Source: Bordetella parapertussis (lineage in GTDB: Bacteria; Pseudomonadota; Gammaproteobacteria; Burkholderiales; SG8-41). Taken from it: 64,000 bases of DNA. The stretch is taken from contig CAMDRT010000011.1 in assembly GCA_945906815.1 (NCBI GenBank), forward strand, positions 27,091 through 91,090. The letters are read 5' to 3'. Positions 23,835 through 28,981 of the stretch are shown here, in pieces (the first letter of the stretch is position 1; each line of letters opens with the position of its first letter). Made by a program: the position numbers and the translations under genes. Under the pieces are notes generated by a model, which was not told the origin of the DNA, searched no databases, and was given only the letters and a program-made list of their open reading frames with translations.

Positions 23835-25145
23835 TTACCCGGCAAGCGCCTGATACACAAGCTGGCGCATCAGCCCGCGCAGCCGCTGCTGCCCCGGCGC
23901 CTGCACCATCATGATGGCGATGAGTTGCTCTTGCGGATCCACCCAGAACGCAGTGCCGAACGCACCGTTCCAGTAGTACTCGCCCACCGATCCGGGCAGC
24001 GGATTTTTGCCTTGCTCGGTGCGCACCACAAAGCCGAGTCCCCAGCCCTGCCCCACGTCGGGCGATGGCCCCGCCGCGCCTTGCGTAACGATATGCGGGG
24101 TGTAGCGTATGCCTGAGGGCAGATGATTGGCAGTCATAGACGCCACGCTATGCTTTGACACGATGCGCACGCCTTCAAGTTCGCCGCCGTTGAGCAGCAT
24201 CTGGCAAAAGCGCACATAGTCCGACGCGGTTGCCACCATGCCGCCACCGCCACCGTAGCGCTTGGGTGGCGACTGCACATTGCGTGTGACGATGCGCTGG
24301 CCGGTGGCTTTGTTGATGTGTGATTCGGCGATGCGCCCGTGATGCGCGGACGGCACCGAGAAACCTGCGTCCCGGATGCCCAGCGGTTTGGAAATGCGCT
24401 CGCGAATAAACGTATCTAGGTCCTGTCCCGATACTACTTCCACCACACGCCCCAGCACATCGGTTGCCACGCTGTAGTCCCAGGTGCTTCCCGGTTGATG
24501 CGCGAGCGGCAGTTTTGACAGCCGCGTGATGAATTCCGGCGTGCTCAACTCCGGGCTGGAAATGCCGGCTTTGTCGTATTCGGTTTTGACCAGCGTCTTC
24601 GCGCCAAATTGGCCGTAGGTCAGCCCTGCGGTATGGCGCAGCAAATCCTGTAGCGTCATCTCGCGGCGCACCGGTTCGAGCACCAGCCTGGTCTCGCCGC
24701 CGGCATCTTTCTGCTCGACGCCAACTTGCAGCCCTTTGAATTCCGGCAAAAAATGCGACACCGGGTCGGTCAGCACGAGCTTGCCTTCTTCGGCCAGCAT
24801 CAGGGTGGCGACCGATACAAACGGCTTGGTCATCGACGCCAAACGAAAAATGGCGTCCGCCGGCATGACATCACCCACTTGCGGATCGCGCATGCCCAGC
24901 GTCTCGTAATAGGCCACCTTGCCGCGGCGCGCGACCAGCAGCACCGCGCCGGGCATGGTGCCTTTGTCGATCTCGGCTTTGAAGGTCTCGGTCAGGCGCT
25001 TGAGACGCTCCGATGAGAGGCCGACTTCTTCCGGAGTTTTCGCGCGCGGCAGGCCCTGCGCCGCCGCTGTGAATGAACACAAACACCACAGTAATGCCGG
25101 CAACGAACGGCGGAGTGCGACGGCGACGTACATGGTGTGCGACAT
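23835..25145 (-). CDS. serine hydrolase (beta-lactamase/EstB family), exported
   Basis: Signal peptide, FRLASMTK (SxxK), LLRHTAG, WDYS, W.GAFGT.FWVDP. Confidence 0.9.
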   Translation of the reverse strand: MSHTMYVAVALRRSLPALLWCLCSFTAAAQGLPRAKTPEEVGLSSERLKRLTETFKAEIDKGTMPGAVLLVARRGKVAYYETLGMRDPQVGDVMPADAIFRLASMTKPFVSVATLMLAEEGKLVLTDPVSHFLPEFKGLQVGVEQKDAGGETRLVLEPVRREMTLQDLLRHTAGLTYGQFGAKTLVKTEYDKAGISSPELSTPEFITRLSKLPLAHQPGSTWDYSVATDVLGRVVEVVSGQDLDTFIRERISKPLGIRDAGFSVPSAHHGRIAESHINKATGQRIVTRNVQSPPKRYGGGGGMVATASDYVRFCQMLLNGGELEGVRIVSKHSVASMTANHLPSGIRYTPHIVTQGAAGPSPDVGQGWGLGFVVRTEQGKNPLPGSVGEYYWNGAFGTAFWVDPQEQLIAIMMVQAPGQQRLRGLMRQLVYQALAG

Positions 25146-25197
25146 AATTCGATCCCTTTTGTGGTTGGCCGCGCGCAATGCTTCGCTTCACTTGTCC

Positions 25198-25932
25198 CTA
25201 TTGCACTGCAGCCCCCAACGACTTGCGTGCCCACTCGGCATAGGTGCCGGTGTCTATCATCTTGCGGCGTATCACGCCGCGCAGGGCTTCGAGTTCCTCA
25301 ACGCTGGGCGCGGGCGTAGCCGCTGCAGGGCCTTCCCCAATGTCAAAGCCGGTACTGTCGCGAATGTCATCCAACGTATAGCCTGGATGCACGGTATCCA
25401 GCCGAAATAACCCCGCGTCCTTGTCAAACAAGAAATTCGCCTTCGGCGTTACCAGCTTGGTGGGATTACCGTGCCGCAGCACATCCGGCGGCGTGCTGCC
25501 GGCGGCGGAGATGTAATCCACTTTCTCCACCAGCGAACGCTGCGTGTGCTCGGTGCGAAATACCACTGTGCGCCGCGCGCCGTAATAGATCATGCCACCG
25601 CCGTAACCACCGGGGAAACGCGCTGTGGGATGATCCAGGTCCGGGCCGAGCTGATGCAGGTTGTAGTTGCCGTGGCGATCCACCTGCACGCCACTGGCAA
25701 AAAACAGACCCAGCTCGCCGCGCTGCGCCAGAAAATGGAATTGCCTGGAGGTGTGAAACGGATTGAAGATGGAATTCAGAATGATCAATTCCGCGTTCGG
25801 TGCGTGCAGTGCCTGTGCCAGCAGCAGGCCGGCAGCAGGAATATGCGACAGTGCTCCGCACGCGGAGATCTCGCCATCGCGCACCTCGCGCGACAGCAGG
25901 ATCACCAGTAATTCGGCGTCCGTGTATGCCAT
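25198..25932 (-). CDS. family I CoA-transferase-fold beta subunit (GctB/IpdB-like)
   Basis: SGVQVDRHGNYN, RFPGGYG, EH..RSLVEKVDYISA, HPG; its ATG overlaps the alpha-subunit stop (TGATG). Confidence 0.88.
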   Translation of the reverse strand: MAYTDAELLVILLSREVRDGEISACGALSHIPAAGLLLAQALHAPNAELIILNSIFNPFHTSRQFHFLAQRGELGLFFASGVQVDRHGNYNLHQLGPDLDHPTARFPGGYGGGMIYYGARRTVVFRTEHTQRSLVEKVDYISAAGSTPPDVLRHGNPTKLVTPKANFLFDKDAGLFRLDTVHPGYTLDDIRDSTGFDIGEGPAAATPAPSVEELEALRGVIRRKMIDTGTYAEWARKSLGAAVQ

Positions 25933-26810
25933 CAGCCCACCACCGCCTGCGCCGGCTGCCGCCACGCCAAGGGGACAAAACGCGCCACATAATCATCGTG
26001 GTCGCGCACGCCATACACGTGCGTCTGTAAATACTCCTCGAACGCGGCATCGTCCTTCGACGCGATCACGTATTGCCGCATGTGGTGGTTGTCGGGCGCA
26101 TACACACCAAGGCACCCCGCCGGGTGGGCGCCAAACGGCGCATGCGCCACGGCATCCACGTGGATGGACGGTATGAAAGCGCCGATCGCTTCCTTTTCCG
26201 TCAAATGGTCAACCACACGCTCGGCGGTGACGATCACGTGTTTCGAGGCTTCCGCCAGTATCACTGCCTCGGCTTCGTAGCCGCAGGACACGTTGCCATG
26301 ACGATCGGCCACCTGCGCGTGGAACACAGCGACGTCCGGGCGCAACGCCTTGGCCACCACTGATTTGGTCTTGCCGTCAAACGGATCAACGGCTATCACC
26401 ATATCGTCGCGGCGCTGCAGCAGATCCGTGCCGACCAACCCCACCACCGGCACGTAGGGCACTCCCATAGACCCAGCCTGGGCCTGTGCAAAGAGCACCC
26501 CTCAGGTATTGTCGAGCGACCGCACTCTGCCCGCCAGCACGTAGCGCACAAAATTAGGACCGCTGCGGGCGAATTCGCCGAAGGTCACGCTGCAGGTGTC
26601 CACCACCTTCACTGCGCCCGCGCCCACCAGAAAATCAATATTGATGTCACCGCCTACCACGCCCACCACGCGCAGGTCGCGCGTGCCCTGCCGCACCAAC
26701 TGGCGCAGCAATGCCATCGGCGCACGATGGATATTGGCGCTCATCACCAATTGCGCGCCGGTCTTGATCGCCGCTGCCGCCTGCTCCAGTGTCGTGAGTT
26801 TGTCACGCAT
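25932..26810 (-). CDS. family I CoA-transferase-fold alpha subunit, 292 aa, in-frame TGA at codon 103 (candidate selenocysteine)
   Basis: MRDKLTTLEQAAA...DFLVGAG...SLDNT-TGA-GVLFAQAQAGSMGVPYVP...RPDVAVFHAQ.AD.HGN...GAHP; both halves in one frame; SD AAGGAGG; downstream SECIS-like hairpin. Confidence 0.85.
26456..26501 (-). promoter_or_regulatory. putative bacterial SECIS hairpin
   Basis: mRNA after UGA: GGGGUGCUCUUUGCAC-AGGCCCA-GGC-UGGGUCU-AUGGGAGUGCCCU; 7-bp upper stem, G-initial loop 23 nt after UGA, lower stem GGGUGCUC/GAGUGCCC. Confidence 0.72.
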
Positions 26811-27003
26811 GTGATCCTCCTTGATCCACGATTCGATTCATTGAAAAATCCGTCCGCCGCAAGCCGACGCTACAACGAAGTGTAGCCCGAATAGCCGCTC
26901 AGTAGCAGACGCTATTCTATTTTCAACCCGGCTGGTTTCACTGACTAGCCATTTCGTTGCACAATAGCCCCGCAATCGTTTTATTTTTTAATGGGAGGCA
27001 TTC

Positions 27004-27957
27004 ATGCTTACTGCGGCAATAGCTTTGTTGATTTTCGCGGCAACCGCGCACGCGCAGGATTTTCCGAGCAAACCGCTACGCATCGTCGTGCCGACGGCAC
27101 CGGGCGGCTCGTCCGACATTCTGGGGCGCCTGATCGGCGCCAAATTGCACGAACGGCTAGGGCAGCCAGCGGTGGTGGAAAACCGCGCCGGCGCCGGCCA
27201 GATGATAGGCGCGGATGTGGTCGCCAAAGCGCCCGCTGACGGGCACACCATGCTGCTGCCCACGGTGACTTACACCACCAGCGCTGCGACCCAATCGAAG
27301 CTGCCGTTTGATGCGGTGAATGACCTGACCGGCATCACCATGATCGGCGAAGGCGTGTTTTTGCTCGCGGTGCATCCGTCGCTGCCAGTGAAATCGGTGA
27401 AGGAACTGCTCGCGCTCGCGCGCGCCAGGCCGGGTAGTCTGATTTATGCGTCGTCGGGAACCGGCGGCATCACGCATTTGATTACCGAGGTGCTCGCCGC
27501 AAACACCAACATCAAACTCGTGCATGTGCCCTATAAGGGCGTGGCGCCCGCGGTCATCGATGTCGTCGGCGGGCATGTGCCGATGATTATCGTCAGCGTG
27601 CCCTCGGTGTTGCCCCAGGTCAAAGCGGGCCGCCTGCGCGCGCTCGCCTCTACCGGCGCGCAGCGCTCCCCGTTCGTGCCCGAACTGCCGACGGTGGCGG
27701 AAGCGGGTGTCCCCGGCTACGAAGCGCGTCAATGGTGGGGCATGCTGGCGCCGGGTAAAACACCGCGCGCCGTCATCGGCAAGCTCAACGGCGAGATCCA
27801 CAACATCCTCGCCTCCGCTGACGTCAAAGCGCGGCTCGCCGACGAAGGCGCCGAGCCGATACTGCGCATGACGCCGGAAGCCTTCAACGACGTCGTGAAA
27901 AACGAGATTGCGAAATGGCGCAAAATCGTCAATCAACTGGGTATCAAGGTGGATTGA
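27004..27957 (+). CDS. Bug/TctC substrate-binding protein
   Basis: FPSKPLRIVVPTAPGG, ENRAGAG, HVPYKG. Confidence 0.93.
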   Translation: MLTAAIALLIFAATAHAQDFPSKPLRIVVPTAPGGSSDILGRLIGAKLHERLGQPAVVENRAGAGQMIGADVVAKAPADGHTMLLPTVTYTTSAATQSKLPFDAVNDLTGITMIGEGVFLLAVHPSLPVKSVKELLALARARPGSLIYASSGTGGITHLITEVLAANTNIKLVHVPYKGVAPAVIDVVGGHVPMIIVSVPSVLPQVKAGRLRALASTGAQRSPFVPELPTVAEAGVPGYEARQWWGMLAPGKTPRAVIGKLNGEIHNILASADVKARLADEGAEPILRMTPEAFNDVVKNEIAKWRKIVNQLGIKVD

Positions 27958-27997
27958 TTTTCTGTATGCCTATGCGCATAGCGCGGGAGGAGGATTG

Positions 27998-28981
27998 ATG
28001 AGACCGGCTCAACCGCTACGCAACCTGAACATCCTGATCGTAGGGTTCGCGGGCTGCTTCGCATCAACCGCCGCCGCGCAGAGTTACCCGATCAAGCCGT
28101 TGCGTCTCATCGTGCCGTTCGCGCCCGGCGGCACCAACGACATCATGGCGCGCGGCATCACGCCGGAGATGAGTGCGATCCTCGGCCAGCAGATCGTCGT
28201 TGACAATCGCGGCGGCGCGAGCGGGCAGATCGGCGCTGAAGCCGTGGCCAAGTCGCCGCCCGATGGTTACACGCTGATGCTGGTGTCGAGTAGCGTGATG
28301 AGCCATGTGCCGGCGGCGTACTCCAAACTGCGCTACGACATGGCGCGGGATTTTGCGCCGGTCGGCAAGGTTGCCGAAGTGCCGCTGGTGATGGTGATGC
28401 ATCTCTCGGTGCCCGCCAAGACCACCAAGGAACTCGTCGCGCTCGCCAAGGCGCGGCCGGGCGAGTTACGGCTGGCGATCGGCGGCACTGGCACCACCAG
28501 CCATTTGGTTACGGAACTGTTCGCGCTCTCCACCGGCATCCGCGTGCTCATCGTGCCCTACAAGGGCGCGGGCCCCGCGCTGGTCGATCTGTTGGGCGGC
28601 CACGTCGACGGGCGCATCGACCAGATACCGTCATCGATGACGCACATTCAATCGCACCGGCTGCGCGCTATCGCCGTCACCACCGCGCGCCGCGCCGAAC
28701 TGCTGCCCAACGTGCCGACACTGAACGAATCGGGCGTGCCGGGCTTCGACGCCAGCTCGATGCTCGGCGTGTTCGTTGCGATGGGTACGCCAGCGGAGAT
28801 CGTGCAGCGCCTGAACGCGGCACTCAACAAGGTGCTGACCCATCCAGCAGTGCTGGAACGCTTCGCGTCACAAGGCGCCGAGGCGCGTCCCGGCAGCAGC
28901 GAGGATTTGGCGAAGTTCGTGCGCGAGGACTTCGCCAAGTGGAAAAAGGTGGTGCAGCAGGCGAAGCTTAAGTTCGAGTGA
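27998..28981 (+). CDS. Bug/TctC substrate-binding protein
   Basis: YPIKPLRLIVPFAPGG, VPYKGAGP; SD ggagga. Confidence 0.93.
   Translation: MRPAQPLRNLNILIVGFAGCFASTAAAQSYPIKPLRLIVPFAPGGTNDIMARGITPEMSAILGQQIVVDNRGGASGQIGAEAVAKSPPDGYTLMLVSSSVMSHVPAAYSKLRYDMARDFAPVGKVAEVPLVMVMHLSVPAKTTKELVALAKARPGELRLAIGGTGTTSHLVTELFALSTGIRVLIVPYKGAGPALVDLLGGHVDGRIDQIPSSMTHIQSHRLRAIAVTTARRAELLPNVPTLNESGVPGFDASSMLGVFVAMGTPAEIVQRLNAALNKVLTHPAVLERFASQGAEARPGSSEDLAKFVREDFAKWKKVVQQAKLKFE

Follow-up and report, generated by a model that had tools for sequence, protein, structure and literature searches.

The DNA examined here is a stretch of 64,000 nucleotides (nt) from contig CAMDRT010000011.1 (assembly GCA_945906815.1, deposited under the name Bordetella parapertussis). 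It is called the window below, and all coordinates are positions in it. Two overlapping genes on its minus strand encode the alpha and beta subunits of a protein with the coenzyme A (CoA)-transferase fold, and the alpha gene is interrupted by an in-frame TGA that, judged from comparative sequence evidence, very probably encodes selenocysteine (Sec). The features of this locus are as follows:

25932 to 26810, minus strand: alpha-subunit gene, 292 codons plus a TGA terminator; GctA/AibA/IpdA-like CoA-transferase fold; predicted Sec at codon 103
26816 to 26822, minus strand: Shine-Dalgarno (SD) sequence AAGGAGG, 5 nt upstream of the ATG at 26810 (26810-26808)
26502 to 26504, minus strand: in-frame TGA, codon 103, predicted Sec codon; TGA in 51 of 51 orthologous loci, Cys (TGC/TGT) in homologues
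26456 to 26501, minus strand: selenocysteine insertion sequence (SECIS)-like element; RNAfold pairs a lower stem (26501-26492 with 26465-26456), with a 2-bp helix and an apical stem above it
26469 to 26485, minus strand: apical hairpin AGGCCC-AGGCU-GGGUCU of the SECIS-like element, loop at 26479-26475; nonamer CCAGGCUGG
25198 to 25932, minus strand: beta-subunit gene, 244 amino acids, PF01144; TGATG overlap with alpha; apparently Leu-Asn-Ser in place of the canonical catalytic Glu

A preliminary description of this DNA, made from its letters and a table of open reading frames (ORFs), had proposed a candidate selenoprotein at this place, and its account of the gene structure holds. The ORF table contains two pieces in the same frame, 26502..26810 (102 amino acids) and 25932..26498 (188 amino acids), split as described by the TGA at 26504-26502 (minus strand, ...GAC AAT ACC TGA GGG GTG CTC...). 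The claimed intact GctA-like read-through product is borne out by the translation, which gives 292 amino acids with the TGA as the sole lesion in the frame, and by the Pfam domain CoA_trans (PF01144), which spans residues 6-223 across the TGA with an E-value of 3.9e-18. Scores for this domain are 66.1 bits for alpha and 44.2 bits for beta against a cut-off of 23. The SD sequence, described before as strong, is present, and GGAG was found at the same spacing before the ATG in 18 of 20 ortholog loci. The alpha terminator (TGA, 25934-25932) overlaps the ATG of an intact beta gene, and from this TGATG arrangement the two genes are judged to be translationally coupled, as had been stated.

Conservation of the TGA and of the frame across it

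Orthologues were collected by a six-frame search of 40 relatives and by a separate scan of 185,579 species genomes; the two ortholog sets overlap (L065 is G019:C7). In the six-frame search, 19 of 20 congeneric genomes and two genomes from other families of the order had an orthologue (63-96% identity). Each of these 21 sequences has exactly one internal TGA, a recurrence well beyond chance. Genome G006 (79% complete) had only a paralogue. The species-genome scan yielded 55 loci, of which 51 are orthologues (57-96% identity) that all carry TGA at codon 103. The other four are distant (36-38%) and have TGC or TGT within D-[AT]-T-C-P, which verifies the D-x-T-C-P motif that the preliminary description had given for related proteins. 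Thus, both outcomes that it had named for a homology search, namely Cys or a conserved TGA at codon 103, were observed.

In all 20 loci that were aligned the TGA is codon 103, and it is flanked on both sides by the conserved motif D-N-T-U-G-V-[LI]-[FY]-[AS]-Q-A-Q-A-G-S-M-G-V-P-Y. Across the 51 loci Leu106 is 98% conserved by means of five different codons, and Val105 by means of three. Changes between the TGA and Met115 are conservative (F/Y, A/S), and the residues of codons 104-108 survive synonymous variation. Of 19 complete loci, 16 also end the alpha gene with TGA, which implies that the recoding is local and that TGA is not a sense codon generally in the genome.

The hosts of the 55 loci are uncultured metagenome-assembled genomes (MAGs) of Betaproteobacteria/Burkholderiales from lakes, groundwater and soil, a few of them under implausible labels. 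Several records (L065, L066, L070, L071, L078, L105; L090, L095; L110) bear the title 'Bordetella parapertussis', 'Streptomyces' or 'SAR324', yet the gene copies in them group with sequences of uncultured Burkholderiales, suggesting that these records are mislabelled or mis-binned.

The codon was also found unchanged in independent DNA: contigs from a second lake sample cover codon 103 with zero differences (X2 records 10 and 11). These sample data are contigs, which show presence and not expression level. Logan contigs of both DNA runs break around 26461-26506, where summed depth peaks, probably because co-occurring strains share the invariant words of the SECIS-like element. Two contigs from RNA libraries (X17 record 2 and X19 record 4) bridge the TGA; because they derive from relatives and could be carried-over DNA, they were not counted as evidence.

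Protein databases hold this family largely in pieces. Among the best 120 matches, 119 are C-terminal fragments of 170-190 amino acids (mostly 178), and the three of them that were fetched start at Met115 (MGVPYVP). Representatives of the 102-residue N-terminal part are present as well (P0129, P0153), and those fragments that bear a name are annotated as 'glutaconate CoA-transferase subunit A' or 'hypothetical'. On this evidence the alpha family is common and is systematically mis-called as two fragments. The remaining match, P0003, is a full-length protein of 291 amino acids with 72% identity and DNTCG at the site, and its ESM Atlas label is 'putative CoA transferase subunit A', with nothing more. 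In a quick maximum-likelihood tree (midpoint root, many long branches, careful search unfinished), 48 predicted Sec sequences group with P0003 in a clade (support 99) that sits within a set of Cys-type sequences. The position of P0003 in a 23-row subclade (support 95) suggests a Sec-to-Cys reversion.

The SECIS-like hairpin and the selenocysteine machinery

A SECIS had been expected directly 3' of the UGA, and a SECIS-like hairpin is present at that place. The 25 bases from nt 16 to 40 after the TGA are invariant in 20 of 20 loci, synonymous sites included, and the flanks vary. Each of codons 109-112 is a single codon in 100% of the sequences having that residue (51 loci), and none of 125 conserved degenerate codons outside 104-120 reaches 98% (mean 0.66). 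This 25-base stretch is the strongest synonymous constraint in the alpha gene.

RNAfold predicts a lower stem, a 2-bp helix and the apical hairpin GGCCC-AGGCU-GGGUC; the tip of this hairpin is found 20-28 nt downstream of the UGA. In an alignment of 45 distinct sequences, 91% of the cells are paired (96% in the upper helix); sliding the partners lowers this to 34-56%. In 42 of these sequences there is no variation in the five core pairs or the loop, and the other three retain the loop. The three most divergent orthologues (L109, L110 and L112) have GAUCC-AGGCU-GGAUC, that is, a double change from C-G to U-A and a change from G.U to A-U.

The FdhA gene of the same genome (1428 bits) contains one TGA and a SECIS that matches the Rfam model SECIS_3 with 54.4 bits (E 2.3e-12), and it served as the control for the Rfam search. 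The FdhA tip, like the SECIS_3 consensus, has the nonamer CCAGUCUGG, one loop base apart from CCAGGCUGG in the alpha gene. FdhA-type genes with a SelB SECIS (Rfam SECIS_3/SECIS_2) and the alpha gene have in common an in-frame UGA, a downstream hairpin inside the coding sequence, Cys homologues, and selA, selB and selC. They differ in the protein fold of the host gene, in the Rfam match, which the alpha hairpin lacks, and in the distance of the tip from the UGA (20 nt in alpha vs 16 nt). By these features the alpha hairpin can be regarded as a candidate SECIS with a SelB-type apical loop, for which covariation is limited.

The preliminary description had reported no sel genes in the window and had asked for them in the genome. 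Three of the components are there, close together on contig 12 and each scoring above its curated cut-off: selB (455.8 bits), selA (578.2 bits) and tRNA-Sec (75.8 bits). The fourth, selD, was not recovered from this assembly (see below). It was found in 15 of 15 congeners searched, and the out-of-genus carriers G030 and G039 both have selB. The selD gene itself contains TGA in this genus, with one in-frame TGA in 14 of the 15 congeners (G001-G015; e.g. G009:C41:18416-19339).

Protein fold, putative active-site column and related loci

A phmmer search of PDB with the alpha protein returned GctA (1POI_A, 7.9e-32), AibA (5MZW_A, 1.8e-26) and IpdA (6CO6/6COJ/6CON, about 1e-20). An AlphaFold2 (AF2) run on 14 close orthologues gave a predicted local distance difference test (pLDDT) score of 42 and was discarded; the model used, built on a 121-sequence alignment, has a pLDDT of 95.5. 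In this model residue 103 opens a helix (103-115) that follows a strand (97-100), and Foldseek gives template-modelling (TM) scores of 0.86 with GctA, 0.85 with IpdA and 0.80/0.89 with AibA. Both subunits thus belong to the family I CoA-transferase fold by PF01144, with which the PDB and Foldseek comparisons agree. At the level of named families, NCBIfam models TIGR02429 (45.9 vs a cut-off of 128.5 bits) and NF007394 (29.8 vs 315 bits) remained below threshold and no other model matched.

In the HMMER alignment residue 103 stands opposite residue 117 of the IpdA chain, a position occupied by Glu in 6CO6 and by Ala in 6COJ. As the latter entry is titled 'IpdAB E105A COCHEA-CoA complex', this switch makes the predicted Sec103 the equivalent of Glu105 of IpdA. 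The Glu of IpdAB-type enzymes at alpha position 105 is therefore replaced here by predicted Sec. According to passages of PMC6678751, IpdAB carries out a retro-Claisen hydrolysis.

The column of residue 103 was examined in 123 sequences, comprising 121 full-length representatives at 50% identity, P0003 and the query. It contains E in 43, C in 32, N in 16, G in 7, H in 7, Q in 4, V in 4, A in 3 and S in 2, plus five singletons, and the E/C/N pattern is consistent with a function-defining site. The closest full-length representatives are all of the Cys type, with the motif [DE]-x-[ST]-C-[PYG]. These uncharacterised homologues (36-43% identity, and 72% for P0003) are the nearest full-length relatives and have Cys where the query has predicted Sec, but the Cys is encoded by TGC/TGT, a SECIS is absent and the gene neighbourhoods are different. 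A second conserved Cys that might act as a redox partner of residue 103 was sought in the Cys-type group and was not found, which implies that a redox pair of the CxxU kind is missing. No hint of a pathway emerged from the genes around two Cys-type homologues. In the genome under study there is also a stop-free alpha paralogue (L044, G000:C26:22458-23297; about 30% identity), which has Glu at the Sec column (ELDEAMYY); by alignment this is an IpdA-like state.

In family I CoA-transferases the catalytic Glu is located on the beta subunit or domain, in an (S)ENG or ESG motif. In the alignment with GctB, 'IIVESG' stands opposite 'LIILNS' of the beta subunit, so that the column of the catalytic Glu is occupied by Leu in this segment of 11.9 bits (i-Evalue 1.1). 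L-N-[ST] is present in nine of ten beta subunits of the Sec clade and L-D-S in the tenth. The canonical transferase nucleophile thus appears to be absent from beta, as in the non-transferase members of the fold. The preliminary description had spoken of a CoA-transferase fold, and the fold is upheld. Since beta appears to lack the catalytic Glu, 'CoA-transferase' is used here as a fold name only.

Three characterised systems may be compared with the alpha-beta pair. IpdAB, a hydrolase that cleaves cholesterol rings (PDB 6CO6, 6CO9, 6COJ, 6CON), is likewise an alpha/beta heteromer with the CoA-transferase fold (TM 0.85, phmmer 1.3e-20) and has its key residue on alpha in the same column, IpdA Glu105 corresponding to Sec103. 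It differs in its low identity (24-26%), in having Glu in place of Sec/Cys, and in its context, as the genes neighbouring the query are TctC genes and not steroid-catabolic ones. Glutaconate CoA-transferase, GctAB (1POI), is the best match in both sequence and structure (alpha 7.9e-32 and TM 0.86; beta 7.8e-16); however, GctA has Gln at the Sec column and GctB retains the catalytic Glu ('ESG') opposite the Leu found here. AibAB, the 3-methylglutaconyl-CoA decarboxylase of Myxococcus (PDB 5MZW to 5N03), has the same fold (1.8e-26, TM 0.80/0.89) and provides, to judge from the titles of its PDB entries, an example of this fold serving a non-transferase reaction, although AibA has Gly at the Sec column.

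The genes on either side of the alpha-beta pair in the window are:

27004 to 27957 and 27908 to 28981, plus strand: two TctC (Bug) solute-binding genes, Pfam PF03401, divergent from alpha; context, not part of the enzyme
23835 to 25178, minus strand: beta-lactamase-family serine-hydrolase gene, Pfam PF00144 (9.2e-65), downstream of beta; context

Nine of the ten loci compared have a TctC gene next to alpha-beta, often immediately upstream and in the same orientation; the two TctC genes of the window are divergent. The beta-lactamase-family gene was considered as a functional partner and rejected because a homologue occurs within about 6 kb in only three of the ten loci; it is absent in L059, the nearest relative (96% identical). 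In the window this gene (447 amino acids) sits between beta and an EamA gene, and in L059 (G019:C7) it is missing from that position. In L059 a TctC gene also lies on the other strand relative to alpha. The locus was rearranged recently. Pathway genes, such as one for a CoA ligase, are not conserved around alpha-beta in the ten loci.

A second clade of alpha sequences with TGA (about 33% identity) was found in three other genera of the family:

L045, G022:C12:58570-59304
L046, G024:C202:31759-32496
L047, G021:C131:7535-8272

These genes read EEHA-TGA-MTLVAGLRAA; their TGA falls in the Sec column of the main clade or in the one next to it, and they have their own conserved hairpin, GGCUG-CGUG-CAGCC, about 16 nt downstream of the TGA. 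In the tree they branch with different Cys-type sequences than the main Sec clade does, and they may represent an independent Cys-to-Sec switch. G022 has selB, and G021 has selA and a fragment of selB. In G024 (rated 100% complete), selB (E <= 1e-40) and selA were not found despite the TGA-containing gene. EF-Tu-like matches, which are seen in other genomes at the selB threshold, are absent from G024 as well.

Interpretation, alternatives and significance

We consider it highly probable that the locus as a whole is best explained as encoding a selenoprotein, the alpha subunit of an enzyme with the CoA-transferase fold. Each outcome that the preliminary description had named as speaking against a selenoprotein, such as a TGA confined to this one genome, was put to the test, and this reading withstood them all. 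In the proposed mechanism, UGA 103 would be recoded to Sec by SelB and tRNA-Sec, directed by the downstream SECIS hairpin. The product would be the alpha subunit of a heteromeric enzyme of the family I CoA-transferase fold, nearest to GctAB, AibAB and IpdAB, with Sec103 predicted to begin a helix and to occupy the column of IpdA Glu105.

Several points weigh against this explanation or parts of it. The support for Sec insertion is computational throughout. The selD gene was not found in the assembly (95.25% complete, 97 contigs): the best match scored 69.7 bits against a cut-off of 125, and by its motif it looks ThiL-like. None of the Rfam models SECIS_2 to SECIS_5 matched the alpha hairpin at E <= 10, and its stability does not exceed that of dinucleotide shuffles of this GC-rich stretch (z 0.07). 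The covariation comes from three related sequences and may reflect a single event or two; in 26 of 500 shuffles there were as many double-changed pairs as observed. With regard to the enzyme, the AF2 model has Cys in place of Sec at 103, and the catalytic role of Glu105 in IpdA is the one reportedly found by Crowe and colleagues in 2018. The alignment that takes the catalytic Glu from beta is the weak segment mentioned above, and no second Cys, cofactor motif or pathway neighbour pointing to a particular chemistry is conserved.

The same evidence bears on other readings of the UGA. It might terminate translation of a conserved split gene, with a 102-residue N-terminal part and a C-terminal part re-initiated at GTG105 or ATG115, the fragments assembling with beta. 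Gene callers predict exactly these fragments, as seen in 119 of the best 120 matches and in the 102-residue N-terminal entries, and ATG115 is nearly invariant. However, codons 104-114, between the TGA and ATG115, are under protein-level selection in the frame (Leu106 by five codons; F/Y and A/S exchanges), ATG115 has no SD sequence before it, and GTG105 is just 3 nt from the stop. Moreover, P0003 is unsplit at 72% identity with Cys exactly at the site, the break would cut into the core of a single domain, where residue 103 starts a helix in the AF2 model, and Sec machinery is present in this genome and in relatives. A split gene therefore appears very unlikely.

We give just as little weight to read-through that does not involve selenium, by which a near-cognate tRNA would insert Trp or Cys, or the Sec machinery would insert Cys when selenium is scarce. 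In its favour, Cys at the site is functional in many homologues and selD is absent from this assembly; yet leaky decoding needs no conserved hairpin with a SelB-type tip, the congeners searched all have selD, and retaining TGA in 51 of 51 loci would be costly if Cys were meant, as TGC and TGT are one mutation away. An in-frame stop in a single genome usually points to a pseudogene or to an error of sequencing or assembly, but at codon 103 the identical TGA recurs in all orthologous loci from many independent assemblies and habitats, amino-acid conservation flanks it on both sides, and contigs of the second sample cover it without difference. This last reading is effectively refuted already.

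If codon 103 is decoded as Sec, the residue is likely to lie in the active site and to be catalytic, as suggested by its column and its position in the model. The apparent loss from beta of the Glu of ordinary CoA-transferases implies that the enzyme is probably not a classical CoA-transferase, and we lean slightly towards a reaction other than classical CoA transfer. A lone Sec, with Cys in relatives, might act as an active-site nucleophile or as an acid/base, and the substrate would be an organic acid or acyl-CoA tied to TctC-type uptake. We infer at most that selenoester-type or acid/base catalysis (C-C cleavage, decarboxylation or acyl transfer) could be directed at an imported acid or its CoA ester. 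A bolder proposal, which we regard as rather doubtful in its entirety, is that of a non-redox selenoenzyme in which a lone Sec replaces the catalytic Glu of IpdAB-type enzymes and performs covalent (selenoester-type) or acid/base catalysis of such reactions, the switch from Cys to Sec having occurred twice, independently, at the same site, in the main clade and in the 'EEHA-U-MTL' clade (about 33% identity).

With regard to novelty, Table 1 of a 2026 review (PMC13188914), which catalogues 119 selenoprotein families or subfamilies, has no CoA-transferase or PF01144 entry, although its supplementary tables could add candidates; the earlier statement that CoA transferases lie outside the classical families agrees with this. 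No CoA-transferase selenoprotein appears in the main text, as far as covered, of this review, the 2022 review PMC9312934 or the deep-Sep paper PMC12013277, whose supplements could differ, and the relevant passages of PMC7176365 deal with FdhA only. A full-text literature search pairing selenoprotein or selenocysteine with CoA-transferase returned nothing relevant, and no model in NCBIfam release 20 claims the alpha protein. On these grounds we rate it as a new selenoprotein family that would use the ordinary bacterial decoding mechanism.

To our knowledge, redox proteins with thioredoxin-like or metal-centre sites make up nearly all of the bacterial selenoproteins described so far. The alpha subunit is a well-supported case of a selenoprotein in the CoA-transferase fold, with a single predicted Sec that has no CxxU partner and takes the place of a catalytic carboxylate. 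Such a protein would extend the range of chemistry linked to selenocysteine and would provide a natural Sec/Cys/Glu series for one active site. The family is common in Burkholderiales MAGs from freshwater, groundwater and soil, and because databases record it as two fragments, annotation pipelines miss it and the selenoproteomes of these aerobic heterotrophs are underestimated. The SECIS tip common to FdhA and the alpha gene offers an easy way to look for more selenoprotein genes in this lineage.

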